Shown: positions 3,500 to 23,812 of the stretch, piece by piece
Layout of the letters: each line of letters begins with the position of its first letter
Position numbering within the stretch: the stretch's first letter is position 1
Assembly (NCBI GenBank): GCA_963662465.1
Contig: OY759599.1
Location: 6,253,292-6,285,291, forward strand
Length of the DNA: 32,000 nt
DNA from: Desulfatiglandales bacterium
GTDB lineage: Bacteria; Desulfobacterota; DSM-4660; Desulfatiglandales; Desulfatiglandaceae
Direction of reading: 5' to 3'
Program-made: the position numbers and the translations under genes
Notes under the pieces: generated by a model
Database searches by the model: none
The model's input: the letters and a program-made list of their open reading frames with translations, nothing else
What the model was told of the DNA's origin: nothing

Positions 3500-3665
3500 G
3501 GCTCAATGCGGATTAACGTGAAAAAATGTTTCGCCACCAAGAAAAACCTCAGTGCATTCGTCATAAAGAGTCGTATGTATTCGGAACCCGACGATCCCAT
3601 GGTTATTTTTCCCACGTGGTAGGTCAGGGTGCGGCGCGTCCCGTTTTTTCCTCTGACCCTGTGGT
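3500..3665 (+). mobile_element. MITE family 1, left half only, fused to a truncated Rpn-A gene
   Basis: ggctcaatgcggattaacgtgaaaaaatgtttcgccacc... aligns with the left halves of the copies at 24129 and 15864. Homology ends inside a shared ggttgaaa (3663-3670), where Rpn-A codons (A)VETKGDN begin. Confidence 0.6.
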
Positions 3666-4098
3666 TGAAACCAAGGGAGACAACGAGCAGCGATATCGGT
3701 GGAAGCTGATCCTCATTAAAAGACTCTACCGCCAGGGATACGCTAAAGCAGATGTGATCAGGCTGTTTGCATTTATAGATTGGGTCATGTCCCTGCCCGC
3801 GGATATGGAAAAAGGCCTTTGGACGGAAATCCAAAAGTTCGAGGAGGAAACGAAAATGGAATATGTTACCAGCGTGGAAAGAATCGGTATAGAGAAAGGC
3901 ATGGAGAAAGGCAGCCTGAATCTTCTGTGCCGTCTCATTGCGAAGCGGTTTAAAACCGGTTCCGAATCGCTTCCGCCGATCTTCACGGGTTTGCGTGCGG
4001 AAGATATCGAAGATCTTGGAGAGCGTTTCCTGGATGCCGAGAGCGTGGATGAGATTCGTCGATGGGCGGAAGAGAAACGCAGGGCGAGGATGCAGTAG
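3663..4098 (+). pseudogene. Rpn-like family A, 5'-truncated copy A4 (C-terminal ~145 codons); nested ORF 3856-4098 intact
   Basis: Part of ORF 3526-4098. VETKGDNEQRYRWKLILIKRLYRQGY...EIRRWAEEKRRARMQ aligns with the C-terminus of the intact 332/336-aa copies. The first ~45 codons of the tracked ORF are MITE-derived. GAGGAGGA 3841-3848 precedes in-frame ATG 3856. Confidence 0.75.
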
Positions 4099-4423
4099 AG
4101 CAGGGACTCAGCCCATGGATATCTGGGTGGCGCTTTATAAAAAACATCAACGGACGCGGAGCGTCCACCCGGTTGTAATCCTTATCCCGTTCATCCTGTA
4201 TATCCATGTTCATTTTTCCATTGGTTCAAGAAATGGTATGCGTTCACGGGTTCATCGCTTCCTTCGGGATACCATTGTGTCGGAGCTGAAGGTGGAAGGT
4301 TCGTAGTGTGCCCGTAAGGCATGGAGTGGACATGCAACCAAACGTCTCACGGCGTCACTACGAACGTCGCAACAGAGCGCATTAACCCCCGGAAAATCCA
4401 CTTTCGCTGCCGAATAACCTTAG

Positions 4424-4595
4424 AGCCTGTTTAAAAATTATCCCTGCTGCGGTCGGCTGCGGCTTCCGATGGCTGCGTCAGCGACAAAAATGGGTCTTCA
4501 GCGTAGCTCGACTACGCTTTCAGCCCCATTTTTATCGCTTCCTTGCCCTCGAAAACCTCGCTCAACCTCGCGACGGGATAATTTTTAAACAGGCT
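4424..4595. mobile_element. MITE family 2 (172 bp, ~20-bp perfect TIRs)
   Basis: agcctgtttaaaaattatccc ... gggataatttttaaacaggct; the interior is one long imperfect foldback. Absent from the paralogous sequence at 17231-17246 (aaccttagaaacatgg = empty site). TTAG lies on both sides of the insertion. Confidence 0.8.
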
Positions 4596-4623
4596 TTTAG
4601 AACCGTGGACACTGAACCCGTGA

Positions 4624-4947
4624 ATGGTTACAGAAAAAGATAGAGCAAGATATTATGGTACTTCTAAAAAAAGAAACTGCCCCGAATGCGGAGGAGAAAT
4701 GCATTCCCGGCTTATCAATCTTCTATATAAAAAAGAGAAGTGCGAAATTCAGGTTGATGTGATCGGAATACCAGCCAATGTTTGTACGAAATGTTTTTAC
4801 AGAATTATTCCGGGCAAAATCGCAAAATATATTGATTCCCTGGTTGATCCGATATTTGAATCTGAAATCGGGCAGCAGGAAAAAATACTTCCTGCTCCAC
4901 ATGTAGGTATTTGGTTTCTGCCGGCAGAAAGAGAATTTTATTGCTAA
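4624..4947 (+). CDS. YgiT/MqsA-type zinc-ribbon protein; expression uncertain
   Basis: 107 aa with two CxxC knuckles (CPECGGEM ... IPANVCTKCFYRIIPGKIAKYIDSL), as in YgiT-type zinc fingers. Sits on a 312-bp segment (4632-4943) absent from the paralogous locus (17268|17269). ATG and stop are supplied by the flanks; no SD. Confidence 0.45.
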   Translation: MVTEKDRARYYGTSKKRNCPECGGEMHSRLINLLYKKEKCEIQVDVIGIPANVCTKCFYRIIPGKIAKYIDSLVDPIFESEIGQQEKILPAPHVGIWFLPAEREFYC

Positions 4948-5252
4948 TTTTCAATACCTCTGGCTATTCGTGTAATTCGAGTGTGGTTTTTGGCGCTCGA
5001 AGACATTCCTCTGCCAGGGTGCAGTACTCCCGGGAGCTTCCTTGGCATGCCGATCTTTCGGAATACAGTGATGAAGAGATTAAAGGCGCTGTTGTTTTGA
5101 GAGTTGTCTTTCTCCTTTTGAAGCATATTTTTTCAAGCGATCTTCCGGAAAAATTCCCTGGGATTTTGGGTCTGTTAAAAGACCTTCTGAATAAACGAAA
5201 CGGTCTTGAATATCTTGAGACGGTGTTGCGATATGTTAGCTTCAGGGAGTGA
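4944..5252 (+). pseudogene. Rpn/YhgA-like family C, central-region remnant (nuclease N-terminus missing), copy C1
   Basis: ..DLSEYSDEEIKGAVVLRVVFLLLKHIFSSDLPEKFPGILGLLKDLLNKRNGLEYLETVLRYV resembles the post-nuclease region of YhgA/Rpn proteins. Ends at TGA 5250-5252. The C-terminal module that follows is in another frame. Confidence 0.5.
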
Positions 5253-5320
5253 TCAAATAGGCAGTGTCGAGATTGAGGAGAGCGTTAGACAGGTTTTTTG
5301 AAGGTCAGGGAGGAGATATT

Positions 5321-5578
5321 ATGCCAACAGCATCTGAACAATGGATCGAGCAGGGAATTGAGCAGGGAATTGAGCAGGGAATGCAGAAGGGGGCTATGAA
5401 ACTTTTGTCCCGTCAAATTGTGAGGCGTTTTCAGGTCAGCTCTGATTCTGTTCATCCGATCTTTGCCGGCTTAACCACAGAGCAACTTGAAGAATTGGGG
5501 GAGAGGTTTCTTGAAGCTGAAAGTTTGGATGAAATTCAGGCTTGGGCAGAGGAAAAACGGTTGACAAAAGCGCAATAA
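5321..5578 (+). CDS. stand-alone Rpn C-terminal module (IEQG repeats + DUF4351-like helical tail), 85 aa
   Basis: GGGAGGAG 5308-5315, ATG 5321: MPTASEQWIEQGIEQGIEQGMQKGAMKLLSRQIVRRFQVSSDSVHPIFAGLTTEQLEELGERFLEAESLDEIQAWAEEKRLTKAQ. The ORF track extends it to a GTG at 5264. Confidence 0.65.
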   Translation: MPTASEQWIEQGIEQGIEQGMQKGAMKLLSRQIVRRFQVSSDSVHPIFAGLTTEQLEELGERFLEAESLDEIQAWAEEKRLTKAQ

Positions 5579-5587
5579 ATTGCCCTC

Positions 5588-5611
5588 GTTCCTACGCTCC
5601 GGCGTAGGAAC
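5588..5611. repeat. REP-like hairpin; unoccupied group II intron target
   Basis: gttcctacgc-tccg-gcgtaggaac (10-bp stem). The paralogous hairpin at 19805-19826 has the intron abutting it; here attgccct|cgttcc (5586|5587) is uninterrupted. Confidence 0.7.
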
Positions 5612-5829
5612 CCATACCGGGCGGCGTTGACACGCCAGGGCTGAACCCGCCTCCCATGACTTTTTGAAACATGATGTGAAAGTCTTTTTCATACCTTGAA
5701 AACCAACACCAGCTCCAAGCTCCGAGATCCAAATACGTTGCATATTTGTCTGTCAGGTTTTTCCTCAAACGGCTCACGACCAATTATTGGAACTGCAAAG
5801 GGTCTGGTTTCTGGTGGGGTGGGGGGGGG

Positions 5830-6186: not shown

Positions 6187-6678
6187 ATGTCAGAGATTGA
6201 CAAATGGGATGAAGTGTTTGAACAACGCCTGACCGGCTTCTTAAAGGAGCATTTGGCCGAGCTCTTGACCAGCGAAGGCCTGAGTCGGCCTGCCAAGGTT
6301 TACGAGATAGAACTTCGGGAGCGGCTTGTGAGGGTGGAAGAGGCGATTAAACACCAGAGCGAGCTGATCCAAAAGACCCTCGACTTCATGGATGTGCGGT
6401 TCGGCGCCGTGGACAAGCGGTTTGAGGCGGTGGACAAGCGGTTCGAGGCGGTGGACAAGCGGTTCGAGGAATTGAGAGAGGATATGAATACACGGTTCGA
6501 GGCCGTGGATAAGCGGTTTGAAGAGCTGAGAGAGGATATGAATACACGGTTCGAGGCCGTGGATAAGCGGTTTGAGGCCGTGGATAGGCGCTTCAACTCG
6601 TTGCAGTGGCTGATAGGGGGAGGGTTTACCTTCCTGACCGTCGTTATCGTCCTTATGAAATTCCTCGTCGGCCCTTGA
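6187..6678 (+). CDS. tail-anchored coiled-coil protein with tandem repeats
   Basis: 163 aa, GGGAGA 7 nt upstream of ATG. Repeats RFEAVDKRFEAVDKRFEAVDKRFEELREDMNTRFEAVDKRFEELREDMNTRFEAVDKRFEAVDRRF (DNA repeats about 6394-6597). Single C-terminal hydrophobic helix LIGGGFTFLTVVIVLMKFLV. Confidence 0.75.
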   Translation: MSEIDKWDEVFEQRLTGFLKEHLAELLTSEGLSRPAKVYEIELRERLVRVEEAIKHQSELIQKTLDFMDVRFGAVDKRFEAVDKRFEAVDKRFEELREDMNTRFEAVDKRFEELREDMNTRFEAVDKRFEAVDRRFNSLQWLIGGGFTFLTVVIVLMKFLVGP

Positions 6679-6868: not shown

Positions 6869-6947
6869 CGTTCCCACGCTCCAGCGTGGGAATGCACTGT
6901 GGACGCTCAGCGCCGTTCGCACCGTTCCCACGCAGAGCGTGGGAACG
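6869..6947. repeat. two REP-like hairpins (6869-6894 and 6923-6947)
   Basis: cgttcccacgc-tcca-gcgtgggaatg and cgttcccacgc-aga-gcgtgggaacg. The second ends exactly at the 5' end of intron copy 1. Confidence 0.7.
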
Positions 6948-8850
6948 GTGCGCCTGTGAAGGCGCTTTATCAGTGCGGTGAAAGTCCGTACCGGAGTATG
7001 CCATAGCTCCGTAGCCGAAGGTAACTGCGTCGCCGCGAGGCGGGGTGGAGAGCAACCGGAGGCGAAAAGTCAGTCCGTAGGATGACGAACCCGATTCGGT
7101 GTCATGTGGTGGCGAGCCTACCGTTCCATGGTGAAGCCTGAAACTCACAGACCACGCTGTAATGGCGGTTAAAGCGATGGTTTGACGGCATGGTATGTTT
7201 GGGGTCGGAATGACTGGAAGGTAAAGCGAGATAAGCAGGGAGACCTGTCTCTTGGGGTGACAGGAGGCAGGAGTCAGAGTCCTCATAGTACCGTAGCGAC
7301 AGAACGGTCCTGCTAACAAGGCTTACGGCGTGAGACCAGTACCCGCCGCCTGCGTCGGATACCGGGTTGTGAAAAGCGCGGATAGCAAAACCGTGCCGAG
7401 GGAAGGAGGATAGGAAGATAGATACGGAAAGGTCATATAGATGCAGCTAAATCAAGCAGTCTCGGCAGTGTTGGAAACAACTAAACGCGAGGCAGAAACC
7501 CGATGGGATTGGGTGGAAGCATCGGTGTGGACGGAACGTATGTTGGCAGCCCTGGGTAACGGGGTGAAAGGTGGTAAATGGTACAGTTTGATGGATAAGG
7601 TGTTCGCCTTGTCGACGCTGGAAGCGGCTTGGGGACGTGTCAAAGCCAATAAAGGAGCGGCAGGGATAGACCGTATCAGCATAAAGCGCTTTAAGGAGCA
7701 GGCGGAGAAATACCTTGCCGAACTGCATGAAACCTTGAAAGCGGGAACGTACCGACCGGAAGCGGTAAAACGGGTATACATTCCGAAAAGCGACGGCAAA
7801 CAACGCCCGCTGGGGATACCCACGGTCAAAGACCGGGTAGTGCAGGCAGCGGTTAAAATGGTTATGGAGCCCATATTCGAGCATGAATTTCTGCCGATGA
7901 GTTACGGCTTCAGGCCGCAAAGAGGTTGCAAGGACGCGTTGCGAGAAGTAGACGCGCTTATTAAGGAAGGCTACACCTTCATACTGGACGCCGACCTGAA
8001 AAGTTACTTTGATACGATTCCGCACGATAAGCTGATGCAACAAGTCGAAATGCGCATCAGCGACGGCAAATTGCTCAATCTGATTCAAATGTTCCTGAAA
8101 CAGGACGTGATGGACGGCTTGGAAAGATGGACACCGACGGGTGGTTCGCCACAAGGGGCGGTAGTCAGCCCCTTGCTTGCGAATATTTACCTGCATCCTC
8201 TTGACAGCCTGATCGCGGAATCAGGTATGCGGATGGTGCGTTACGCAGACGACTTTGTTATCCTCAGCCGCAGTCAAACGGAAGCGGAGAATGCTTTGCA
8301 AAAGGTACGGGAGTGGGTACAGGCTAATGACCTGAGCTTACACCCGGACAAGACGCATCTTGGCGACTGTCGACAAAAGGGTCAGGGATTTGAATTCCTG
8401 GGATACCGGTTTGAGGCAGGAAAGCGCTGGATACGCAGTAAAAGCCGTAAAGCCCTTCGTGATAAAATCCGGGAAGAGACCCGGCGCAAACGTAGCGGAA
8501 GTATGGAAAGCATCATTGATGATCTGAACCCCATGCTTGAAGGCTGGTTTGGTTACTTCAAACACGCCTACCGCACTGAGTTTGCGGCGGTGGATAAGTT
8601 TGTCCGCCGACGCTTACGCGCCGTATTATTGCGTCGTAACAAACGCAAGGGCTGGGGCAAAAGCCTTGAAGCCCACCGCCGCTGGCCGAATGCCTACTTC
8701 GCGAAAATCGGGCTTTTCACTATGCATGAGGCCCGGTTAGCAGCGTGCCGATCCCGATGAGGAAACTATCGACCGGAGAGCCGTGTGCGGGAGAACCGCA
8801 TGCACGGTTCGGAGGGAGGGGAGAGCCAAGAGGCTCTTTCCTACCCCTAT
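6948..8850 (+). mobile_element. group II intron, copy 1 (1903 bp)
   Basis: 5' GTGCGCC at 6948. RT/maturase ORF sits in domain IV. Domain V-like gagccgtgtgcgggagaaccgcatgcacggttc (8778-8810), then domain VI and 3' end ..cctacccctAT (8850). Boundaries are where identity with the inverted copy 17900-19802 stops. Confidence 0.9.
7441..8760 (+). CDS. group II intron reverse transcriptase/maturase, no endonuclease domain
   Basis: 439 aa. RT blocks RPLGIPTVKDRVVQ, FILDADLKSYFDTI, SPLLANIYL, VRYADDFVILS (YADD), then maturase/X region GWFGYFKH... Ends without an HNH/En domain. Confidence 0.95.
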   Translation: MQLNQAVSAVLETTKREAETRWDWVEASVWTERMLAALGNGVKGGKWYSLMDKVFALSTLEAAWGRVKANKGAAGIDRISIKRFKEQAEKYLAELHETLKAGTYRPEAVKRVYIPKSDGKQRPLGIPTVKDRVVQAAVKMVMEPIFEHEFLPMSYGFRPQRGCKDALREVDALIKEGYTFILDADLKSYFDTIPHDKLMQQVEMRISDGKLLNLIQMFLKQDVMDGLERWTPTGGSPQGAVVSPLLANIYLHPLDSLIAESGMRMVRYADDFVILSRSQTEAENALQKVREWVQANDLSLHPDKTHLGDCRQKGQGFEFLGYRFEAGKRWIRSKSRKALRDKIREETRRKRSGSMESIIDDLNPMLEGWFGYFKHAYRTEFAAVDKFVRRRLRAVLLRRNKRKGWGKSLEAHRRWPNAYFAKIGLFTMHEARLAACRSR

Positions 8851-8904
8851 AGGGAGTGTAGTGCGTAAAAACGAGTATACTCTCCAACGGTTGTGATTTA
8901 CACC

Positions 8905-9682
8905 CGTACAGCTGTACCGCAAAGACGGCAGCGATGAATGGGTGTTGGCGCACGTGGAAGTGCAGGGGCAGAAAAAGAAACCGTTCCCTGAGAGGATGTA
9001 CACTTATAATTACCGAACATTTGACCTTTTTCATCGGAAAGTAGCCAGTATCGCGATTCTGGCGGATGAAAATCCTTTGTGGCGTCCGGATCATTTCAGT
9101 TATGACTTGTGGGGAAGTCGTGCCGGGCTGTGGTTTCCATGTGTGAAGCTTCTTGATTACCGTGAGAAATGGTTGGAACTGGAGGAGTCGACCAATCCCT
9201 TTGCCTCGGTTGTGATGGCGTATTTAAAGGCGGTTGAAACCAAGGGAGACAACGATCAGAGATACCGGTGGAAGCTGATTCTCATTAAAAGACTCTATCG
9301 CCAGGGATACGCTAAAGTAGATGTGATCAGGCTGTTTGCATTTATAGATTGGGTCATGTCCCTGCCTGCGGATATGGAAAAAGGCCTTTGGACGGAAGTC
9401 CAAAAGTTTGAGGAGGAAACGAAAATGGAATATGTTACCAGCGTGGAAAGAATCGGTATGGAGAAAGGTATGGAGAAAGGCATGGAGAAAGGCAGCCTGA
9501 ATCTTCTGTGCCGTCTCATTGCGAAGCGATTTAAAACCGGTTACGAATCGCTTCCGCTGATCTTCACCTTGGGTTTGCGTGCGGAAGATATCGAAGATCT
9601 TGGCGAGCGTTTCCTGGATGCCGAGAGTGTGGATGAGATTCGTCGATGGGCGGAAGAAAAACGCAGGGCGAGGATGCAGTAG
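8905..9682 (+). pseudogene. Rpn-like family A, 5'-truncated copy A1; nested ORF 9425-9682 intact
   Basis: Homology to the intact copies starts at VQLYRKDGSDEWVLAHVEVQGQ and runs to the stop; about 70 N-terminal codons are missing. 3 MEKG repeats (9458-9493). One extra codon (FTLGL vs FTGL). Confidence 0.75.
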
Positions 9683-9912
9683 TGCAGGGACTTAGCCCAT
9701 GGACATCTGGGTGGCACTCTGTAAAAAACATCAACGGACGCGGAGCGTCCACCCGGTTGGGGAGGGTGGCTTCAATTCCGGTTGTAATCCTTATCCTGTT
9801 CATCCTGTATATCCATGTTCATTTTTCCATTGGTTCAAGAAATGGATAATGATTATGTCGCTGTTCACAGGAGAAGTTCTTCTCGGCACGCAAGCGCCGG
9901 TGTTTCATTTTA

Positions 9913-9941
9913 TTGACAATTCTCTTTAAATGAGCCACAAT
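9913..9941 (+). promoter_or_regulatory. sigma-70-type promoter of Rpn-B1, probably leaderless mRNA
   Basis: TTGACA (9913-9918) - 17 nt - CACAAT (9936-9941). ATG at 9949 is 7 nt after the -10 box, with no SD. Confidence 0.5.
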
Positions 9942-9948
9942 CGACACC

Positions 9949-10923
9949 ATGGTCGAACATGACAACAGTTACAAGCTTCTTTTTTCCCATGCGGAGATGG
10001 TCCGGGATTTGCTTCTGGGTTTTGTGAAAGAGGAGTGGGTCCGGAAACTCGATCTGGCGTCATTGGAACGGGTGAGCGGGTCCTATGTAAGCGATGATAT
10101 CCGGGATCGGCACGACGATATTGTCTGGCGGGTGAAGTGGGGCCGAGAGTGGCTCTATGTGTACATCTTGATCGAGTTTCAGTCAACCATCGATAAATAC
10201 ATGCCACTGCGTGTCCTGGTGTATGTCGGGCTTTTATATCAGGACCTGATTCGGGAAAAGAAACTGGGACCTTCGGGCAAATTGCCGGCTGTTCTGCCGG
10301 TGGTACTGTATAATGGGAGCCGGCGCTGGGACAAGTCCACCGAATTGTGGGACCTGATCGAGGATGTGCCTGGGGGGCTATCCCAATATCGTCCCCGGTT
10401 CACATTCTTGCTGCTGGACGAAGGCGCTTACCGGGATGAAGATCTGAAACCGCTTAAGAATCTTGTTTCGGCCCTGTTCCGTTTGGAAAACAGCCGGAAC
10501 CCGGAACGGATCAGGGAGGTGGTAACAGTGCTGTTGGATTGGCTGGCTGCGCCCGAACAGGCGAGTTTGAGACGCGCCTTTACGGTATGGTTTAATCGGG
10601 TATTTTTTCCGTCCCGAGGAAAGGAAATGATACCCCCTGAATTTGAAGAACTGACGGAGGTACGTGCCATGCTGGCTGAAACCGTTGCGGAATGGAAAGA
10701 AGAATGGAAGAGGGATGGGCTGAAAGAAGGCCTGAAGAAAGGCCTGAAGAAAGGCCGGAAGGAGGGTGAAGCGAACATTCTTTTAAAGCTTATTGAGATG
10801 AAATTTGGACGAATAAGCCTAATAGATCGAAAAAGGGTTCAATCGGCTGACAGTGAAACTCTGTTGAGATGGGGGAAACAAATTCTCACAGCCAACAAAA
10901 TGGATGAGATATTCAGACTGTAA
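9949..10923 (+). CDS. Rpn/YhgA-like PD-(D/E)XK recombination-promoting nuclease family protein, family B copy B1 (324 aa)
   Basis: DNSYKLLFSHAEMVRDLLLGFV...SGSYVSDDIRDRHDDIVWRVKW..WLYVYILIEFQSTIDKYMPLRVLVY...LPAVLPVVLYNG is the YhgA/Rpn N-terminal core with a D...E-x-Q motif. Internal GGAGG 10656-10660 + in-frame ATG 10669. LKEG/LKKG repeats about 10717-10767. Confidence 0.85.
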   Translation: MVEHDNSYKLLFSHAEMVRDLLLGFVKEEWVRKLDLASLERVSGSYVSDDIRDRHDDIVWRVKWGREWLYVYILIEFQSTIDKYMPLRVLVYVGLLYQDLIREKKLGPSGKLPAVLPVVLYNGSRRWDKSTELWDLIEDVPGGLSQYRPRFTFLLLDEGAYRDEDLKPLKNLVSALFRLENSRNPERIREVVTVLLDWLAAPEQASLRRAFTVWFNRVFFPSRGKEMIPPEFEELTEVRAMLAETVAEWKEEWKRDGLKEGLKKGLKKGRKEGEANILLKLIEMKFGRISLIDRKRVQSADSETLLRWGKQILTANKMDEIFRL

Positions 10924-11364: not shown

Positions 11365-12363
11365 GTGGAACAAAAAATGACCTTTGACTCTGAAACGGCT
11401 GATTACGACAGTCCGTGGAAAAACGCTCTGGAATGCTATTTTCGTGAATGCATTGAGTTTTTTCTTCCTGATATGGCGCAGGATGTGGATTGGGAAAGGG
11501 GATGCCTTTTTTTGGACAAGGAATTTCAGCAGGTGTCCAAAAATGCGGCTGTCGGTCGCAGATATGCCGACAAACTCGTACAATTGTACCGCAAAGACGG
11601 CAGCGATGAATGGGTGTTGGCGCACGTGGAAGTGCAGGGGCAGAAAAGGAAACCGTTCCCTGAGAGGATGTACACTTATAATTACCGAACCTTTGACCTT
11701 TTTCATCGGGAAGTAGCCAGTATCGCGATTTTGGCGGATGAAAATCCTTTGTGGCGTCCGGATCATTTCAGTTATGACTTGTGGGGAAGTCGTGCCGGGC
11801 TGTGGTTTCCATGTGTAAAGCTTCTTGATTACCGTGAGAAATGGTCGGAACTGGAGGCATCGACCAATCCCTTTGCCTCGGTTGTGATGGCGCATTTAAA
11901 GGCGGTTGAAACCAAGGGAGACAACGAACAGCGATACCGGTGGAAGCTGATCCTCATTAAAAGGCTCTACCGCCAGGGATACGCTAAAGCAGATGTGATC
12001 AGGCTCTTTGCATTTATAGATTGGGTCATGTCCCTGCCCGCGGATATGGAAAAAGGCCTTTGGACGGAAATCCAAAAGTTCGAGGAGGAAACGAAAATGG
12101 AATATGTTACCAGCGTGGAAAGAATCGGTATGGAGAAAGGCATGGAGAAAGGCATGGAGAAAGGCATGGAGAAAGGCAGTCTGAATCTTCTGTGCCGTCA
12201 AATTGCGAAGCGGTTTAAAACCGGATACGAATCGCTTCCGCCGATCTTCACGGGTTTGCGTGCGGAAGATATCGAAGATCTTGGCGAGCGTTTCCTGGAT
12301 GCCGAGAGCGTGGATGAGATTCGTCGATGGGCGGAAGAAAAACGCAGGGCGAGGATGCAGTAG
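11365..12363 (+). CDS. Rpn-like PD-(D/E)XK family A protein with DUF4351-type C-terminus, intact copy A2 (332 aa)
   Basis: ..DYDSPWKNALECYFRECIEFFLP...YADKLVQLYRKDGSDEWVLAHVEVQGQK (D...E-x-Q) ...NPFASVVMAHLKAVETKG...FAFIDWVMSLP..., 4 MEKG repeats (12130-12177), tail LNLLCRQIAKRF...EDIEDLGERFLDAESVDEIRRWAEEKR. Likelier start is ATG 11377. Internal GAGGAGGA 12082-12089 + ATG 12097. Confidence 0.8.
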   Translation: MEQKMTFDSETADYDSPWKNALECYFRECIEFFLPDMAQDVDWERGCLFLDKEFQQVSKNAAVGRRYADKLVQLYRKDGSDEWVLAHVEVQGQKRKPFPERMYTYNYRTFDLFHREVASIAILADENPLWRPDHFSYDLWGSRAGLWFPCVKLLDYREKWSELEASTNPFASVVMAHLKAVETKGDNEQRYRWKLILIKRLYRQGYAKADVIRLFAFIDWVMSLPADMEKGLWTEIQKFEEETKMEYVTSVERIGMEKGMEKGMEKGMEKGSLNLLCRQIAKRFKTGYESLPPIFTGLRAEDIEDLGERFLDAESVDEIRRWAEEKRRARMQ

Positions 12364-12462
12364 AGCTGAGGGACTCAGCCCATGGACATCTTTCCCAAAA
12401 ACCTCGATTTAAGTTCACAGATTTCTTGTTTTTCATGACAGAAAACCTGGAAATAAGGTACT

Positions 12463-12662: not shown

Positions 12663-12849
12663 AGAAATTGGTTTCCCTGCCTGAGTCTCCGATTTTTCTT
12701 GCACATTAATAGTATGCCCCTACGCTAAACGCAACATGCACAAAATAGACCCTCTTCCGAGCATCTTCAGGATAAAAAAAGCCTGTATAGTGAAGTACCT
12801 TTTATCGGAACTTATAGCCACATAAGTTCTGACAATCAGAACCTTATCC

Positions 12850-13754: not shown

Positions 13755-14225
13755 CCATCGACCAATCCCTTTGCCTCGGTTGTGATGGCGCATTTAAAGG
13801 CGGTTGAAACCAAGGGAGGCAACGATCAGAGATACCGGTGGAAGCTGATCCTCATCAAAAGGCTCTACCGCCAGGGATACGCTAAAGCAGATGTGATCAG
13901 GCTGTTTGCATTTATAGATTGGGTCATGTCCCTTCCCGCGGATATGGAAAAAGGCCTTTGGACGGAAATCCAAAAGTTCGAGGAGGAAACGAACATGGAA
14001 TATGTTACCAGCGTAGAAAGAATCGGTATGGAGAAAGGCAGCCTGAATCTTCTGTGCCGTCTCATTGCGAAGCGGTTTAAAACCGCTTACGAATCGCTTC
14101 CGCCGATCTTCACGGGTTTGCGTGCGGAAGATATCGAAGATCCTGGCGAGCGTTTCCTGGATGCCGAGAGCGTGGATGAGATTCGTCGATGGGCGGAAGA
14201 GAAACGCAGGGCGAGGATGCAGTAG
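13755..14225 (+). pseudogene. Rpn-like family A, 5'-truncated copy A5; nested ORF 13995-14225 intact
   Basis: Part of ORF 13710-14225. Homology begins at STNPFASVVMAHLKAVETKG. 1 MEKG repeat (14028-14039). GAGGAGGA 13980-13987 + ATG 13995. Confidence 0.75.
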
Positions 14226-14484: not shown

Positions 14485-14491
14485 CGACACC

Positions 14492-15550
14492 ATGGTCGAA
14501 CATGACAACAGTTACAAGCTTCTTTTTTCCCATGCGGAGATGGTCCGGGATTTGCTTCTGGGTTTTGTGAAAGAGGAGTGGGTCCGGAAGCTCGATCTGG
14601 CGTCATTGGAACGGGTGAGCGGGTCCTATGTAAGCGATGATATCCGGGATCGGCATGACGATATTGTATGGCGGGTGAAGTGGGGTCGAGAGTGGCTCTA
14701 TGTGTACATCCTGATCGAGTTTCAGTCAACCGTCGATATATACATGCCACTGCGCGTCCTGGTGTATATCGGGCTTTTATATCAGGACCTGATCCGGGAA
14801 AAGAAACTGGGACCTTCGGGCAAATTGCCGGCTGTTCTGCCGGTGGTACTGTATAATGGGAGCCGGCGCTGGGACAAGTCCACCGAGTTGTGGGACCTGA
14901 TCGAGGATGTGCCTGGGGGGCTATCCCAATATCGTCCCCGGTTTACATTCTTGCTGCTGGACGAAGGCGCTTACCGGGATGAAGATCTGAAACCGCTTAA
15001 GAATCTTGTTTCGGCCCTGTTCCGTTTGGAAAACAGCCGGGACCCGGAACGGATCAGGGAGGTGGTAACAGCGCTGTTGGATTGGCTGGCTGCGCCGGAA
15101 CAGGCGAGTTTGAGACGCGCCTTTACGGTATGGTTTAATCGGGTATTTTTTCCGTCCCGAGGAAAGGAAATGATACCCCCTGAATTTGAAGAACTGACGG
15201 AGGTACGTGCCATGCTGGCTGAAACCGTTGCAGAATGGAAAGAAGAATGGAAGAGGGATGGCCGAAAGGAAGGCCTGAAAGAAGGCCGGAACGAAGGCCT
15301 GAAAGAAGGCCGGAACGAAGGCCTGAAAGAAGGCCGGAACGAAGGCCTGAAAGAAGGCCGGAACGAAGGTCGGAAGGAGGGTCGGAAGGAGGGGGAAGCA
15401 AACATTCTTTTAAAGCTTATTGAACTGAAGTTTGGACCCATAAACCTGAAAGACCGAAAACTGGTTCAATCCGCTGACAGCGAAACCCTGTTGAGATGGG
15501 GAAAACAAATTCTCACAGCCAACAAAATGGATGAGATATTCAGACTGTAA
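14492..15550 (+). CDS. Rpn/YhgA-like nuclease family protein, family B copy B2 (352 aa)
   Basis: Near-identical to B1 except for four perfect 24-nt units gaaggcctgaaagaaggccggaac (15269-15364; EGLKEGRN x4), giving 28 extra aa. Internal GGAGG 15199-15203 + in-frame ATG 15212. Confidence 0.85.
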   Translation: MVEHDNSYKLLFSHAEMVRDLLLGFVKEEWVRKLDLASLERVSGSYVSDDIRDRHDDIVWRVKWGREWLYVYILIEFQSTVDIYMPLRVLVYIGLLYQDLIREKKLGPSGKLPAVLPVVLYNGSRRWDKSTELWDLIEDVPGGLSQYRPRFTFLLLDEGAYRDEDLKPLKNLVSALFRLENSRDPERIREVVTALLDWLAAPEQASLRRAFTVWFNRVFFPSRGKEMIPPEFEELTEVRAMLAETVAEWKEEWKRDGRKEGLKEGRNEGLKEGRNEGLKEGRNEGLKEGRNEGRKEGRKEGEANILLKLIELKFGPINLKDRKLVQSADSETLLRWGKQILTANKMDEIFRL

Positions 15551-15815: not shown

Positions 15816-16883
15816 TTTGACCTTTTTCATCGGAAAGTAGCCAGTATCGCGATTCTGGCGGATTAACGTGAAAAAATGTTTCGCCACCAGGAAAAACCTC
15901 GGTGCATTCGTCATAAAGAATCGTATGTATTCGGAACCCGACGAACCCATGGTTATTTTTCCCACGCGGTAGGTCAGGGTGCGGCGCGTCCCGTTTTTTC
16001 CTCTGACGCTGTTGAATCCCAAATGGGTTGAAATCCATCAAACGACCGAAAAAACTCCAACGCGCCGTTCCCTGACATTTTTGCGACCACCCCAACGTCG
16101 CCAATGGGATTATCGGTTTATGCCGAATCAATGTCAGGTAATCCCGCGTGTGGACATGTGGGATTTTGAATGTTCATGGGGGTTGGCGTGGAAATCGAAA
16201 TTTCGCGGTAAAAATGTGAACGCGGGACAACCTGACCTACTGACTATACAACTTTTCCCCTCCGGGAATGTTTTTACGTCAATCCGCGATGAACCAAAAA
16301 TCCTTTGTGGCGTCCGGATCATTTCAGTTATGACTTGTGGGGAAGTCGTGCCGGGCTGTGGTTTCCATGTGTAAAGCTTCTTGATTACCGTGAGAAATGG
16401 TCGGAACTGGAGGCATCGACCAATCCCTTTGCCTCGGTTGTGATGGCGCATTTAAAGGCGGTTGAAACCAAAGGAAACAACGATCAGCGATACCGGTGGA
16501 AGCTGATCCTTATTAAAAGACTCTACCGCCAGGGATACGCTAAAGCAGATGTAATCAGGCTGTTTGCATTTATAGATTGGGTCATGTCCCTGCCTGCGGA
16601 TATGGAAAAAGGCCTTTGGACGGAAATCCAAAAGTTCGAGGAGGAAACGAAAATGGAATATGTTACCAGCGTGGAAAGAATCGGTATGGAGAAAGGCAGC
16701 CTGAATCTTCTGTGCCGTCAAATTGCGAAGCGGTTTAAAACCGGTTACGAATCGCTTCCGCCGATCTTCACGGGTTTGCGTGCGGAAGATATCGAAGATC
16801 TTGGCGAGCGTTTTCTGGATGCCGAGAGCGTGGATGAGATTCGTCGATGGGCGGAAGAGAAACGCAGGGCGAGGATGCAGTAG
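15816..16883 (+). pseudogene. Rpn-like family A copy A6: 5'-deleted and split by MITE family 1; nested ORF 16653-16883 intact
   Basis: 15816-15863 encodes FDLFHRKVASIAILAD, joined upstream to the A-gene upstream region at a shared aca. The MITE occupies 15864-16295. The gene resumes at NPLWRPDHFSYDLWG.. and runs to the stop (ORF 16305-16883). 1 MEKG repeat (16686-16697). Confidence 0.75.
15864..16295 (+). mobile_element. MITE family 1 copy inside Rpn-A6 (left TIR shortened by 22 nt)
   Basis: ..taacgtgaaaaaatgtttcgcc ... gaatgtttttacgtcaatccgcgatgaacc. Co-linear with 24151-24576. No credible ORF inside. Confidence 0.75.
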
Positions 16884-17268
16884 AGCTGAGGGTCTCAACC
16901 CATGGACATCTGGGTGGCGCTTTGTAAAAAACATCAACGGACGTGGAGCGTCCACCTGGTTGGGGAGGGTGGCTTCAATTCCGGTTGTAATCCTTATCCC
17001 GTTCATCCTGTATATCCATGTTCATTTTTCCATTGGTTCAAGAAATGGTATGCGTTCACGGGTTCATCGCTTTCTTCGGGATACCATTGTGTCGGAGCTG
17101 AAGGTGGAAGGTTCGTAGTGTGCCCGTAAGGGCATGGGGTGGGCATGCAACCAAACGCCTCACTGCGTCACTACGAACGTCGCAACAGGGCGCATTAACC
17201 CCCGGAAAATCACACTTTCGCTGCCGAATAACCTTAGAAACATGGACACTGAACCAGTGAACGGTTAC

Positions 17269-17577
17269 CTAATTTCAAATACCTCTGGCTATTCGTGTAA
17301 TTCGAGGGTGGTCTTTGGCGCTCGAAGACATTCCTCTGCCAGGGTGCCGTATTTCCGGGATCTTCCTTGGCATGCCGATCTTTCGGAATACAGTGATGAA
17401 GAGATTAAAGGCGCTGTTGTTTTGAGAGTTGTCTTTCTCCTTTTGAAGCATATTTTTTCAAGCGATCTTCCGGAAAAATTCCCTGGGATTTTGGGTCTGT
17501 TAAAAGACCTTCTGAATAAACGAAACGGTCTTGAATATCTTGAGACGGTGTTGCGATATGTTAGCTTCAGGGAGTGA
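17269..17577 (+). pseudogene. Rpn/YhgA-like family C central-region remnant, copy C2
   Basis: Paralogue of 4944-5252, with the same TGA and the same frame break before the C-terminal module. Confidence 0.5.
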
Positions 17578-17645
17578 TCAAATAGGCAGTGTCGAGATTG
17601 AGGAGAGCGTTAGACAGGTTTTTTGAAGGTCAGGGAGGAGATATC

Positions 17646-17891
17646 ATGCCAACAGCAGCTGAACAATGGATTGAGCAGGGAATTGAGCAGGGAATGCAGC
17701 AGGAGGCTATGAAACTTTTGTCTCGTCAAATTGTGAGGCGTTTTCAGGTCAGCTCTGATTCTGTTCAACCGATCTTTGCCGGCTTAACCACAGAGCAACT
17801 TGAAGAATTGGGGGAGAGGTTTCTTGAAGCTGAAAGTTTGGATGAAATTCAGGCTTGGGCAGAGGAAAAACGGTTGACAAAAGCGCAATAA
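17646..17891 (+). CDS. stand-alone Rpn C-terminal module (2 IEQG repeats), 81 aa
   Basis: GGGAGGAG 17633-17640, ATG 17646: MPTAAEQWIEQGIEQGMQQEAMKLLSRQIVRRFQVSSDSVQPIFAGLTTEQLEELGERFLEAESLDEIQAWAEEKRLTKAQ. Confidence 0.65.
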   Translation: MPTAAEQWIEQGIEQGMQQEAMKLLSRQIVRRFQVSSDSVQPIFAGLTTEQLEELGERFLEAESLDEIQAWAEEKRLTKAQ

Positions 17892-17899
17892 ATTACCCT

Positions 17900-19802: not shown

Positions 19803-19804
19803 CA

Positions 19805-19826
19805 TTCCCACGCTCCGGCGTGGGAA
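19805..19826. repeat. REP-like hairpin abutting intron copy 2
   Basis: ttcccacgc-tccg-gcgtgggaa. On the minus strand it reads gcgtgggaatg|GTGCG. Confidence 0.7.
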
Positions 19827-19948
19827 CCCATACCGGGCGGCGTTGACACGCCAGGGCTGAACCTGCCTCCCATAACTTTTTAAAACATGATGTGAAAGTC
19901 TTTTTCATACATTGAAAACCAACACCAGCTCCAAGGCTGGAAAATCCC

Positions 19949-20094
19949 AAAGATCTTGGGGAGACTCCAGAAAAACCATATTCAGGGAAGTTTGTGTTGC
20001 GCTTGCTGCCCAAATAGCTAACCAGAGCCTCAACGCATAGGCAGCAGAACATTTGATCTAAAATGCCGAACAAGAACTTCAAAAGCCTTTTTGA
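19949..20094 (+). pseudogene. hicB: hicB C-terminal remnant, copy 2 (stops and frameshift)
   Basis: KDLGETPEKPYSGKFVLRLLPK* then ..AAQIANQSLNA*AAEHLI*NAEQELQKPF. Paralogue of 12463-12662. Confidence 0.5.
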
Positions 20095-20285
20095 AGAAAT
20101 TGGTTTCCCTGCCTGAGTGAGTCTCCGATTTTTCTTGCACATTAATAGTATGCCCTACGCTAAACGCAACATGCAGAAAATAGACCCCTCTTCCCAGCAT
20201 CTTCAGGATAAAAAAAGCCTGTATAGTGAATTACATTTTATCTGAACTTATAGCCACATAAGTTCTGGCAATCAGAACTTTATCC

Positions 20286-20314
20286 TTGACACATCGAGAC
20301 TCAGAGTGTATTGA
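20286..20314 (+). promoter_or_regulatory. sigma-70-type promoter of higBA-2
   Basis: TTGACA (20286-20291) - 17 nt - TATTGA (20309-20314); ATG at 20321. Confidence 0.45.
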
Positions 20315-20320
20315 AATTCT

Positions 20321-20626
20321 ATGCACATAATCGCTCGTAACTCACTGATTGAATTTGGGGTAAAATATCCGGATGTCAGAATGGCTGTTGACAGGTGGTG
20401 GACTATATGCAGAAAAAATACTTTTTGTTCTTTCTCCGACCTGAAAAAGACATTCGGCACAGCCGATATGGCAGATAGATGTGTTATTTTCAACATCGGT
20501 GGCGGAAAATATAGATTGGTCGTAAGAGTCAACTTTGTGGGCCGGAGAATGTGGATAAAGTATGTGTTACCCCATAATGAATATGAAAAGCTTGATCTGA
20601 AGGAGGACTCAAAATGCCGGCCATAG
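20321..20626 (+). CDS. higB: type II toxin HigB, copy 2
   Basis: 101 aa, differs from copy 1 at a few residues (e.g. PDVRMAV vs PDGRTAV). Confidence 0.85.
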   Translation: MHIIARNSLIEFGVKYPDVRMAVDRWWTICRKNTFCSFSDLKKTFGTADMADRCVIFNIGGGKYRLVVRVNFVGRRMWIKYVLPHNEYEKLDLKEDSKCRP

Positions 20627-20994
20627 ATGGTATGGATTCCAGAGATTTATATCCACTGATAGTTATAAGAAGCCAGGATGATTACAAAAAGGCACTTGGT
20701 TCCATGGAGACTGTTTTTGATGAGGAGACAGGTCCCCTGGCAGATTATGCAGAAACACTTGCCATCCTGATTGTGCACTATGAGGAACAGAATTTTCCAT
20801 TGGAGAAAAAACAGGGAGTGGAAGTCCTGAAGTTTCTTATGGAACAGAATGGTCTCAAACAAAGGGATCTGGTGGGGACTCTTGGAGGGAAGTCGACTGT
20901 TTCGGAGATACTTAATGGGAAAAGGCCATTAAACTTGCAGCACATCAGGACCTTGGCAGATAGATTCCATGTTGTGCCCGGAACCTTTGTTTAA
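20614..20994 (+). CDS. higA: HigA antitoxin, copy 2
   Basis: 126 aa, same HTH as copy 1, 13-nt overlap with higB. Confidence 0.85.
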   Translation: MPAIDGMDSRDLYPLIVIRSQDDYKKALGSMETVFDEETGPLADYAETLAILIVHYEEQNFPLEKKQGVEVLKFLMEQNGLKQRDLVGTLGGKSTVSEILNGKRPLNLQHIRTLADRFHVVPGTFV

Positions 20995-21284
20995 CACGGA
21001 CACACAGGCTGACACCGACTTTTTCACCTATCGCAGCTTCTTCCATGACGAAGAAACCCAAAGATTATTTTACCATGAAAACAGGCGATAGGCGATGGGC
21101 TATGGGTTCTGCCGCCATTTTCATCTGCGGGGGTGGCAAATCCCTTGTCATGAGGGTTTACCATGAAAATACATCGCAGGCGCCTGCTGTGAGTAGAGAC
21201 AAGGCATGCCTTGTCGCTACAGCCTCGACCGTCGCGGCGAGACGCCGCTCACACAGCGCCATTTTCATGCGCGGGGGGGGGGGG

Positions 21285-21631: not shown

Positions 21632-21906
21632 TCCGAAGTTGTTACCTGCGCAAGTTGTTTTTGTAACCGCTTACTGCTGACGAACTCTTATTCTTTGGAT
21701 CTGTGCAGGTAGTGACTTACAGATTAAATGCTTCGAAAAAAACAAGATGATCAGTATAATAAGAGGAATTCATTGCTAAAAAAACTTAAAACTGCGTCTT
21801 GCCGCCTTAGCCATTATACATCCTAATTCTCCCCACCATCCCTTCCAGTCTTGCCCTTTCAGCTTTCACCTTTGGGTTTCTATCCATCCTATCCACAGCT
21901 CTCATC

Positions 21907-21935
21907 TTGACAAATCCAACAAACTGGGTAATACT
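21907..21935 (+). promoter_or_regulatory. sigma-70-type promoter of brnTA
   Basis: TTGACA (21907-21912) - 17 nt - AATACT (21930-21935). AGGAGG at about 21953-21958 precedes the TTG start at 21965. Confidence 0.45.
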
Positions 21936-21964
21936 ATGTATGCCCTAAAAACAGGAGGCTATTT

Positions 21965-22237
21965 TTGCGAATTAATGATTTCGAATGGGATGAGGGTAAT
22001 GCCTTGCATCTCCAACTGGGTCACGGTATTTCGCCGGAAGAGGCAGAAGAGGTCTTTGCCGGCGACCCTTTTTTCAGACGAACAAAAAAAGGGCATTACG
22101 CAGTTTTTGGTCCAACCTTTGAAGGAAGGTATCTGACGATTGTTTTCCAGCTAAAACCCAAAGGCATTGCTCGACCTTTCACCGGCTGGGATATGCGTCG
22201 AGCAGAAATTCAATACTACAAGAAACACAGGGGATAA
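21965..22237 (+). CDS. brnT: BrnT-family (DUF497) ribonuclease toxin
   Basis: 90 aa, TTG start. FEWDEGNALHLQLGHGISPEEAEEVFAGDPFF...GRYLTIVF...ARPFTGWDMRRAEIQYYKKH fits the BrnT pattern (FEWD..K......HG.sFeEA..vF.......). Confidence 0.8.
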   Translation: MRINDFEWDEGNALHLQLGHGISPEEAEEVFAGDPFFRRTKKGHYAVFGPTFEGRYLTIVFQLKPKGIARPFTGWDMRRAEIQYYKKHRG

Positions 22238-22239
22238 GA

Positions 22240-22533
22240 GTGGCAACACAAAAACCGGCGCCAAAAAACTGGGCGGAGTATTACGACCAGGAAAATATTC
22301 TGGAGGAAATCCTGGAGGACGCGGTCAATTTCAGCTTGAACGAAGATCTTCTTCAGGCCATCGTTGCAGGCAAGCGTAAGAGAAAACTGAAAAATATCTC
22401 TATCAAGATAGATCCTCTGCATGTTTCAGCTATCAAGAAGCTTGCTACAATGAAGGCTATCCCTTATCAGACTTTGGTAAGACAGTGGCTTGCAGAGGAT
22501 ATTAGGAAGGAATTGGATGCGGTCACAAAATAG
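22240..22533 (+). CDS. brnA: BrnA-family antitoxin
   Basis: 97 aa, GTG start 2 nt after the brnT stop. C-terminal KNISIKIDPLHVSAIKKLATMKAIPYQTLVRQWLAEDIRKEL is typical of BrnA. Confidence 0.75.
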   Translation: MATQKPAPKNWAEYYDQENILEEILEDAVNFSLNEDLLQAIVAGKRKRKLKNISIKIDPLHVSAIKKLATMKAIPYQTLVRQWLAEDIRKELDAVTK

Positions 22534-22801
22534 CTGGATTCATGGGCTTATCAACTTCTCCACCTAAATTTGTGCATGTTACCCCATAAAAGAAAAAAGG
22601 TTGTAAGTATCCTGAAAATCACGTAAATCCTGTCACAATAACCCGGTAATATTCAAAAGGGACAGGCCAATAATTTTATATTGGCGACGTGGGCCGAATT
22701 CTCCTTGATCTCCATTCCTTCCATCAATTTCCAAACATCAAAAGAACCTTGCCCGACCTTGGGCTTTCTGATATTCTGGCAGCATATTCAAACTCGAACG
22801 G

Positions 22802-23812
22802 GTGGAACAAAAAATGACCTTTGACTCTGAAACGGCTGATTACGACAGCCCGTGGAAAAACGCTCTGGAATGCTATTTTCGTGAATGCATTGAGTTTTTT
22901 CTTCCTGAGATGGCGCAGGATGTGGATTGGGAAAGGGGATGCCTTTTTTTGGACAAGGAATTTCAGCAGGTGTCCAAAAATGCGGCTGTCGGTCGCAGAT
23001 ATGCCGACAAACTCGTACAACTGTACCGCAAAGACGGCAGCGATGAATGGGTGTTGGCGCACGTGGAAGTGCAGGGGCAGAAAAGGAAACCGTTCCCTGA
23101 GAGGATGTACACTTATAATTACCGAACATTTGACCTTTTTCATCGGAAAGTAGCCAGTATCGCGATTCTGGCGGATGAAAATCCTTTGTGGCGTCCGGAT
23201 CATTTCAGTTATGAATTGTGGGGAAGTCGTGCCGGGCTGTGGTTTCCATGCGTGAAGCTTCTTGATTACAGTGAGAAATGGACGGAATTGGAGGCATCGA
23301 CCAATCCCTTTGCCTCGGTTGTGATGGCGCATTTAAAGGCGGTTGAAACCAAGGGAGACAACGAGCAGCGATACCGGTGGAAGCTGATCCTCATTAAAAG
23401 GCTTTACCGCCAGGGATACTCTAAAGCAGATGTGCTCAGGCTGTTTGCATTTATAGATTGGGTCATGTCCCTGCCTGCGGATATGGAAAAAGGCCTTTGG
23501 ACGGAAATCCAAAAGTTCGAGGAGGAAACGAAAATGGAATATGTTACCAGCGTGGAAAGAATCGGTATGGAGAAAGGCATGGAGAAAGGCATGGAGAAAG
23601 GCATGGAGAAAGGCATGGAGAAAGGCAGCCTGAATCTTCTGTGCCGTCTCATTGCGAAGCGATTTAAAACCGGTTACGAATCGCTTCCTCCGATCTTCAC
23701 GGGTTTGCGTGCGGAAGATATCGAAGATCTTGGCGAGCGTTTCCTGGATGCCGAGAGCGTGGATGAGATTCGTCGATGGGCGGAAGAAAAACGCAGGGCG
23801 AGGATGCAGTAG
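22802..23812 (+). CDS. Rpn-like family A protein, intact copy A3 (336 aa)
   Basis: As A2 but with 5 MEKG repeats (23567-23626). Likelier start is ATG 22814. Internal GAGGAGGA 23519-23526 + in-frame ATG 23534. Confidence 0.8.
   Translation: MEQKMTFDSETADYDSPWKNALECYFRECIEFFLPEMAQDVDWERGCLFLDKEFQQVSKNAAVGRRYADKLVQLYRKDGSDEWVLAHVEVQGQKRKPFPERMYTYNYRTFDLFHRKVASIAILADENPLWRPDHFSYELWGSRAGLWFPCVKLLDYSEKWTELEASTNPFASVVMAHLKAVETKGDNEQRYRWKLILIKRLYRQGYSKADVLRLFAFIDWVMSLPADMEKGLWTEIQKFEEETKMEYVTSVERIGMEKGMEKGMEKGMEKGMEKGSLNLLCRLIAKRFKTGYESLPPIFTGLRAEDIEDLGERFLDAESVDEIRRWAEEKRRARMQ

Follow-up and report, generated by a model that had tools for sequence, protein, structure and literature searches.

The closest described relatives of the genes considered here are the rpn genes of Escherichia coli, which encode a toxic nuclease (RpnL) and, from an internal start, a small protein (RpnS) that binds and inhibits it (Zhong et al. 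2023, PMC10400941). Here we describe an array of rpn-like genes in a stretch of 32,000 nucleotides from a Desulfatiglandales bacterium (GenBank assembly GCA_963662465.1, contig OY759599.1, positions 6,253,292 to 6,285,291), hereafter the window. The array contains ten copies, whole or broken, of three related Rpn-type gene types, denoted families A, B and C. Its four intact genes are probably RpnL/RpnS modules, each of which would encode a nuclease toxin that is translated weakly and, nested within it, an antitoxin that is translated strongly.

In E. coli RpnA, Met 244 is the experimentally proven start of RpnS, and the K240R/E241D/M244L substitutions, which alter the ribosome-binding site (RBS) as well as the ATG, abolish RpnAS (Zhong et al. 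2023, PMC10400941). According to the same study, the crystal structure of RpnAS is a bundle of three helices, the first of which is long. The helix common to RpnL and RpnS carries four-residue repeats that begin 8–20 residues after the Met, and their variable number sets the specificity between the two proteins. The authors cite a parallel in the Type I restriction-modification systems EcoR124I/II, where the number of four-residue TAEL repeats in a helix also changes specificity; these belong to a different protein family, however, and their repeats set the length of the DNA target spacer rather than toxin–antitoxin pairing. It was also reported that RpnS exists as a separate gene annotated as DUF4351, that E. 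coli has expressed standalone copies such as ypaA, that rpn arrays come from tandem duplication and that a plasmid-borne Rpn protects against T-even phages (PMC10400941). A commentary by Koonin makes the same points (PMC10400984).

In every anatomical feature, the array in the window reads as described by Zhong et al. Like E. coli RpnA-E and RpnP2, its intact genes would encode PD-(D/E)XK nucleases with a C-terminal helical domain. As in RpnA, an internal RBS and an ATG are found at the alignment position of Met 244. The four-residue repeats, each consisting of one hydrophobic residue together with charged residues or Gly, are likewise variable in number and begin at residues 9–18 compared with 8–20 in E. 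coli. Putative standalone DUF4351/RpnS copies, an array formed by duplication and a location among toxin–antitoxin (TA) and defense genes complete the resemblance. On the other hand, the host is an uncultured Desulfobacterota-like organism, with best matches among metagenome-assembled Deltaproteobacteria, and three families stand side by side.

A preliminary description of this DNA had proposed that two products arise from one gene in three families at once. The two-product reading is supported by the homology to Rpn, the conserved internal start with its Shine–Dalgarno (SD) sequence and the match to RpnA Met 244. That three families would do so at once is not borne out in the window, where no intact toxin gene of family C is present and four of the six family A copies are truncated. 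Moreover, the architecture had already been published (Zhong et al. 2023 and the Koonin commentary), and families B and C are plain members of the known Rpn type. Its extension to family A, recognizable by the DYDSPWK motif, is new. On the comparisons given below, so are the synonymous-site evidence for selection on the internal SD across phyla and the systematic contrast between SD-poor RpnL starts and SD-strong RpnS starts.

Relationship of the three families to Rpn nucleases

The preliminary description had assigned all three families to Rpn/YhgA-like proteins. Searches with the YhgA-like and DUF4351 models support this assignment directly for family B, which matches PF04754, and by derivation for family C, which like family A matches DUF4351; for family A, which fails the curated models, the assignment depends on profile–profile comparison. 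The two family B genes match PF04754 (Transposase_31, YhgA-like) with E-values of 4.6e-30 and 3.6e-29, and the 3206 homologs detected for this family are named 'Rpn family recombination-promoting nuclease/putative transposase'. Full-length homologs of family C (P0243-P0254 and others) carry both PF04754 and PF14261. The latter domain, DUF4351, is matched by family A (2e-8, 34.5 bits) and family C (2e-11, 44.1 bits) above the gathering cut-off of 25 bits. On family B the match is under the Pfam cut-off (6e-4, 20.3 and 19.5 bits), and many family B homologs have a precomputed PF14261 match. By these matches, the family B genes are genuine Rpn genes, and family C descends from such a gene.

Family A is more distant. 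Comparison of the family A and family B alignments with hhalign gave a probability of 98.1% and an E-value of 1.1e-13 over 261 columns. In this alignment, the HxEVQ motif sits on LxEFQ, and the internal Met of family A aligns with that of family B. A tblastn search with family B also matched a family A locus (L028) with 22% identity over 288 residues (E-value 1e-7). Five residues are invariant in family A (D15, D69, E89, Q91 and R101). In a motif match read from the RpnA sequence, they correspond to D11, D63, E82, Q84 and R94, which make up the predicted active site of RpnA; each of the substitutions D11A, D63A, E82A and Q84K abolishes RpnA activity (Kingston et al. 2017). Families B and C belong to the PF04754/TIGR01784/COG5464 Rpn family; family A shares with it the HD..FK-type motif, the D...E-x-Q core and the Arg of the next helix. 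DYDSPWK is the family A version of the N-terminal HD..FK motif, and family A is a remote Rpn homolog missed by the curated models. In the family A protein encoded at 11365-12363, DYDSPWK stands at the N-terminus, and both D69 and the nuclease core E89-x-Q91 are present.

Family A is also large. Its N-terminal domain alone retrieved 5334 clusters at 50% identity with E<=1e-3, and 3234 with E<=1e-10. Among species-representative genomes, more than 592 loci were found, in Cyanobacteria, Desulfobacterota, Chloroflexota, Chromatiales, Riflebacteria and Armatimonadota. The family is abundant in filamentous cyanobacteria, Desulfobacterota and Chloroflexota, and no member was found in IMG/VR. In databases, these proteins are named 'DUF4351 domain-containing', 'cytosolic protein' or 'hypothetical'.

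A conserved internal start with a conserved Shine–Dalgarno sequence

In E. coli RpnA, AAGGAG precedes the ATG of Met 244 by 6 nt (context 'SLMTIAERLRQEG'), and the protein reads ...KHKESLM(244)TIAERLRQEGEQ... around this position. When RpnA was added to the family B alignment, Met 244 fell within one column of family B Met 241. The family C sequence 'IMPTLAEQWIEQG' has the same motif as the RpnA internal start. In the window, the SD elements and spacings given in the preliminary description were all recovered: GAGGAGGA and 7 nt before the ATG in family A, GGAGG and 8 nt in family B, GGGAGGAG and 5 nt in family C. So were the peptides that follow, which begin with MEYVTSVERIG in family A, MLAETVAEWKEEW in family B and MPTA(S/A)EQWIEQG in family C.

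How well this arrangement is conserved was assessed at the DNA level for 79 family A loci, drawn from the groups listed above, 79 family B loci and six family C genes. The internal start codon of family A is ATG in 75 loci, GTG in three and AAA in one, and that of family B is ATG in all 79. In family C, the Met is invariant in about 75 homologous proteins; all six DNAs have ATG, preceded within about 15 nt by GGAGG, AGGAGG or GAAGGAG.

SD strength was expressed as the energy (dG) of the duplex with the anti-SD sequence over positions -18 to -4. For family A, the mean is -8.5 kcal/mol at the internal start, compared with -2.2 over all remaining codon positions and -1.6 for the 489 other ATGs in the same frame. 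It is -6 or lower in 95% of loci, as opposed to 10% and 7% for the two controls, and in 85% of loci the site is within the best 5% of its own gene. Family B behaves in the same way, with a mean of -9.4 at the site against -2.8 for all codons and -2.3 for other in-frame ATGs, and with -6 or lower in 99% of loci against 13% of controls.

Codon choice provides evidence at the level of synonymous sites. In family A, GAG encodes the Glu at position -5 in 82% of sequences and that at -4 in 95%, whereas GAG accounts for 14–57% at 17 other conserved Glu columns and for 38% gene-wide. The bias holds in separate lineages: GAG is found at -4 in 21/21 non-cyanobacterial loci (47% gene-wide) and at -5 in 39/44 cyanobacterial loci (33% gene-wide). 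In family B, the Glu at -4 is encoded by GAG in 79/79 loci, whereas GAG makes up 36–61% at conserved Glu columns that lie away from the start and 46% over the whole gene. Moreover, family A loci in which the residues themselves have changed (QE, EQE, EGE, EKE) still keep the GGAG/AGGAG core. The purine string is therefore not free to vary synonymously in orthologs, and the SD–ATG pair is conserved beyond the coding needs of Glu and Gly, with GAG at 82–100% of SD codons against 38–46% gene-wide in the two families. By this measure, the internal SD is under selection at synonymous sites in two families and across several phyla. Downstream of the ATG, the Glu at +3 in family B is encoded by GAA in 89% of genes, a preference that may reflect an A-rich, unstructured initiation region.

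The window itself is consistent with this picture. The motif GGAGG-N4-9-ATG occurs 15 times on the + strand and not once on the - strand, compared with 4.1 +/- 2.0 occurrences in shuffled sequences. Ten of the 15 are the internal starts of the rpn copies and two are the starts of HigA-like genes. Both the excess over shuffles and the identity of these sites suggest that the motif marks real initiation sites in this genome.

Weak full-length starts and strong internal starts

The starts of the full-length proteins present the opposite picture. At loci L001-L160, their mean dG is about -2, close to background, and 16–27% of loci reach -6 or lower, whereas the internal starts average -8.7 over both families. 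In the window, the full-length start of family B (9949) follows 'AATCGACACC', and that of family A, probably the ATG at 11377 in the gene at 11365-12363, follows 'GGGTGGAACAAAAA'. A weak start for RpnL combined with a strong start for RpnS predicts far more of the latter than of the former, as expected for an antitoxin.

Taken together with the E. coli data, these features point to a likely mode of action. Each intact gene would direct synthesis of a full-length PD-(D/E)XK DNA endonuclease (RpnL) from an SD-poor start, while the internal SD and ATG would yield RpnS, a small protein with the same sequence as the C-terminal helical domain of RpnL. Present in excess, RpnS would bind the matching C-terminal helix of RpnL and block the nuclease. 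The number of four-residue repeats would decide which RpnS pairs with which RpnL, so that the paralogs in the window (with four and five repeats in family A, four and eleven in family B) would be insulated from each other. For the window genes, we infer RpnS translation, RpnL toxicity, its neutralization by RpnS and a role in phage defense by analogy with E. coli.

Several points weigh against reading the intact genes as RpnL/RpnS modules. Six of the ten copies in the window cannot make a toxin. Unlike the E. coli proteins, family A escapes the curated Rpn models: it has no PF04754 match at E<=0.1 and scores 14.1 bits with TIGR01784, whose cut-off is 52.1. Another difference from the E. coli system, in which RpnS has a short transcript from an internal promoter, is that no sigma-70-like promoter was found upstream of the internal start in a crude scan whose consensus may not be that of the host. 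A Foldseek search of the RpnS model against PDB gave no match at E<1, the full model likewise had no significant PDB match, and sequence searches of PDB (profiles A1, A2 and A3; family B small open reading frame) did not recover the RpnAS crystal structure. Taken by itself, the conservation of the internal Met could be structural, as this residue is part of a conserved peptide motif. Finally, the ratio of nonsynonymous to synonymous differences (pN/pS) is equally low upstream of the small open reading frame and inside it (0.14 vs 0.13), giving no specific sign of selection on the small frames of the six orphan copies.

Could the SD-like element have a role other than initiation? It might act during elongation, as a pause at the domain boundary that helps the nuclease domain to fold, or be a fossil left when a nuclease gene and a DUF4351 gene fused in the distant past. 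The element does lie exactly at the domain boundary, the predicted local distance difference test score (pLDDT) of the AlphaFold2 model falls at residues 245-265, and standalone DUF4351 genes exist. Nonetheless, we consider both variants very unlikely. A fossil would not persist at synonymous sites across phyla, and a pause needs no start codon 5–8 nt downstream, yet ATG or GTG is present there in 78/79 family A loci and ATG in 79/79 family B loci. The contrast between SD-poor RpnL starts and the SD-strong RpnS site, moreover, fits differential expression of two products. Least probable is that the purine string and the Met are a protein-level by-product (an acidic Glu-Glu/Gly-Gly linker and a structural Met at the long helix) and that no small protein is made: the Met is indeed part of a conserved motif (family A, M-x-Y-V-T-S-V-E-R-I-G; family B, MLAE; family C, MPTxAE) and Glu and Gly codons are purine-rich by nature, but GAG reaches 95–100% at the SD position against 38–46% gene-wide in two families and separate phyla, the GGAG/AGGAG core survives changes from EE to QE, EQE, EGE or EKE, three of the four non-ATG cases are GTG, other in-frame ATGs of the same genes have no SD, and the homologous site in E. 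coli has been proven to be a start.

Small open reading frames and their repeats

The ten small open reading frames (ORFs) of the preliminary description were all confirmed as ATG-initiated frames of the lengths given in Table 1, although only four of them are nested within intact full-length genes. In all ten, the ATG is followed by a tetrapeptide tract and then by a DUF4351-type helical tail. The repeats begin at residue 12 (A), 18 (B) or 9 (C) after the Met of the small ORF, and their coding DNA consists of exact tandem repeats of 12 nt, with 100% identity in 12130-12178, 23567-27 and 5348-82; the longer family B copy has a 24-nt period in 15260-15387. The number of repeats differs between copies in the window and is variable among homologs of all three families as well. 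An AlphaFold2 model of the family A small protein (pLDDT 82.6) consists of helices 6-40, 56-68 and 72-87, with the repeats in the long first helix.

An array built by segmental duplication

All coordinates refer to window positions, and all rpn copies are on the + strand. The region from about 3.6 to 23.9 kb is a mosaic of segmental duplications, 88–96% identical and all in + orientation. Family A is represented by two intact genes and four copies truncated at the 5' end, family B by two intact genes and family C by two frameshifted remnants only (Table 1). One block, consisting of a family A tail and a family B gene, was duplicated as a unit, with 9188-10766 matching 13758-15309. Another combines a family A tail with a family C remnant: 3663-4424 and 4944-5586 match 16460-17238 and 17269-17899. 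The second intact family A gene (22802-23812) is 96% identical to 11149-12391. Judging by these matches, the array structure arose by segmental duplication.

Table 1. Rpn-type genes, gene fragments and internal initiation elements in the window
Feature	Position	Strand	Description
Family A full-length RpnL-like gene	11365..12363	+	332 aa from GTG 11365; 4 MEKG repeats
Internal SD and start of the 11365-12363 gene	12082..12099	+	GAGGAGGA 12082-12089, 7-nt spacer, ATG 12097-12099
Nested RpnS-like ORF, 88 aa	12097..12363	+	repeat-bearing long helix followed by two helices (DUF4351)
Family A full-length gene, copy 2	22802..23812	+	336 aa; 5 MEKG repeats; SD 23519-23526; nested ORF 23534-23812 (92 aa)
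Family B full-length Rpn gene	9949..10923	+	324 aa; PF04754; SD GGAGG 10656-10660; nested ORF 10669-10923 (84 aa, 4 repeats)
Family B full-length Rpn gene, copy 2	14492..15550	+	352 aa; SD 15199-15203; nested ORF 15212-15550 (112 aa, 11 repeats, 24-nt period)
5'-truncated family A copy	3663..4098	+	homology from 3663; small ORF 3856-4098 (80 aa, 2 repeats); SD intact
5'-truncated family A copy	8902..9682	+	from about codon 70, without D15 and D69; small ORF 9425-9682 (85 aa, 3 repeats)
5'-truncated family A copy	13756..14225	+	small ORF 13995-14225 (76 aa, 1 repeat; Leu to Pro in tail)
5'-truncated family A copy	16297..16883	+	small ORF 16653-16883 (76 aa, 1 repeat)
Family C remnant	4944..5578	+	two frameshifts; free-standing small ORF 5321-5578 (85 aa, 3 IEQG repeats); SD 5308-5315
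Family C remnant, copy 2	17269..17891	+	same two frameshifts; small ORF 17646-17891 (81 aa, 2 repeats)

The four truncated family A copies are cut off on their 5' side at recombination junctions (3663, 8902, 13756 and 16297). The catalytic N-terminus is absent from them, and 64–174 in-frame codons of the RpnL linker region still stand upstream of the small ORF. Of the nuclease region, the family C remnants retain the final ~100 codons, with some 50 residues of PF04754 left. Both of their frameshifts are upstream of the small ORF and common to the two copies, so that the small ORF is free-standing rather than nested.

As a side observation, the whole window shows a strong strand asymmetry: the + strand carries every rpn copy and each of the 15 GGAGG-N4-9-ATG motifs. 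The 1-kb bins have a positive GC skew with four exceptions, at 0-1 kb, at 18-20 kb over the inverted intron, and at 21-22 and 25-26 kb, where the skew is near zero.

Orphan copies: antitoxin genes or debris

The six orphans (four truncated family A copies and two family C remnants) may be free-standing RpnS genes, comparable to ypaA/RpnESs, or the recent debris of recombination, and we rate the two readings about equally. Like the standalone RpnS genes of E. coli (ypaA/RpnESs and RpnCSs; PF14261), the orphans retain only the RpnS part and its SD, and they occur in an array with full-length genes. In contrast to those genes, they still have in-frame or frameshifted RpnL sequence upstream and look like recent truncations, not tidy small genes.

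That the orphans are inert products of illegitimate recombination among rpn paralogs, without a function as standalone antitoxins, is an even bet. Their junctions coincide with other repeated segments and with a group II intron, and both family C remnants carry the same two frameshifts. One family A orphan has the Leu to Pro change in its tail, and another has an insertion of one codon there. The similar pN/pS values upstream of and inside the small ORF are as expected if the divergence predates the truncation. Moreover, the repeat numbers of the family A orphans (1, 1, 2 and 3) match neither intact family A gene (4 and 5). Set against this, in all six orphans the SD and the ATG are retained and the small ORF is uninterrupted; in the family C remnants, the upstream part has decayed but the small ORF has not. 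E. coli does express standalone RpnS copies such as ypaA, and cognate RpnL genes with one to three repeats could lie elsewhere in the genome. It is because the equal pN/pS and the unmatched repeat numbers are countered by the retention of SD, ATG and ORF that the two readings come out about equal.

Possible exchange of the antitoxin tail between nuclease families

The RpnS tail of family C (AMKLLSR...AEEKR; 5321-5578/17646-17891) is found with 80–97% identity on proteins with at least four N-terminal types. In the proteins compared (P0007, P0013, P0009, P0286, P0292, P0331, P0343, P0354 and P0357), these are the C-type PF04754 domain, the A-type DYDSPWK domain, a 'MHDQNFKNLILDYP' type and a 'MTKQSHDHNFKNLF' type. 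Some A-type proteins have an N-terminal domain about 68% identical to that of family A in the window and a tail closer to family C (90%) than to family A (61%). Within the window, the tails of families A and C are 56% identical and those of A and B 16%, where the identical residues of the best local alignment are counted relative to the 61 residues of the family A tail, and the A–B alignment spans 24 residues. The distribution of the family C tail suggests that nuclease families have exchanged the antitoxin cassette, with a junction close to the repeat tract.

A broader proposal combines three elements: family A as a large unannotated sister clade of Rpn with a nested antitoxin, the RpnS tail as an exchangeable cassette, and the orphans as a reservoir or by-product of repeat-tract recombination that re-keys pairing. 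We offer it tentatively, as it seems unlikely that all three parts would hold jointly.

Genomic surroundings

A pair consisting of a HigB toxin and a helix-turn-helix antitoxin occurs twice in the window (12885-13558 and 20321-20994); the segment around it, 12517-13622, shares 95% identity with 19949-21058. An ORF at 22240-22533 encodes a CopG-type antitoxin. With two HigB/HigA-like pairs and a CopG-type antitoxin nearby, the rpn array sits in a TA-rich island. The other neighbors include a protein binding cyclic nucleoside monophosphates and a radical-SAM/SPASM protein. The latter (282-1775, - strand, 497 aa) has weak partial PADLOC matches to prokaryotic viperin (E-value 2.5e-12), which probably reflect merely the common radical-SAM core.

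A group II intron is present in two copies, 99.7% identical, at 6924-8854 (+ strand) and 17896-19827 (- strand). Each has an ORF of 439 aa for a reverse transcriptase and maturase, and Rfam RF00029 matches are found at 8776-8850 and 17900-17974. The sequence after the stop codon of the first family C remnant (5589-5719) resumes at 19805-19935, which marks an empty intron site at 5586-5589 and places the second intron 5 nt after the stop of the second family C remnant, in antisense orientation. Thus, a filled and an empty site are paired inside one window. The second intron adjoins a hairpin, TTCCCACGC-TCCG-GCGTGGGAA. A similar hairpin precedes the first intron, whose end lies 48 nt ahead of the truncated family A copy at 8902-9682.

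Two further ORFs on the + strand lie in this part of the window. The ORF at 4624-4947 has a sub-threshold match to a YgiT-type (MqsA-like) zinc ribbon (TIGR03831, 15.6 bits against a cut-off of 20.2). It is directly upstream of the first family C remnant, overlapping its start, and is absent at the second copy. The ORF at 6187-6678 (163 aa) contains 21- and 54-nt tandem repeats (6396-6594), encodes heptad-like units RFEAVDK(RFEELREDMNT) and a hydrophobic C-terminus, and has a weak match to Syntaxin as its only Pfam match.

A full-length family C homolog from another locus (P0248, 78% identical; L162, 3001-3984) stands between cas1 and a gene for a Cas3-like helicase. The same locus has a reverse transcriptase gene and two cas2 genes, a defense-island context for a C-type Rpn.

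Implications for the Rpn family

The concept of a nuclease toxin with a nested antitoxin, published in 2023, is itself unchanged by these results. They add comparative-genomic support for the view that the RpnL/RpnS design is ancient and selected well outside Enterobacteria and Firmicutes. This support is independent of ribosome profiling and is based on the synonymous-site constraint on the internal SD. The results also indicate a likely function for a big family that is common in cyanobacteria and sulfate reducers and labeled 'DUF4351 domain-containing' or 'cytosolic protein'. For annotation, they imply that such genes should be called with two products, and that arrays of them should be read as TA or defense islands and not as transposases.

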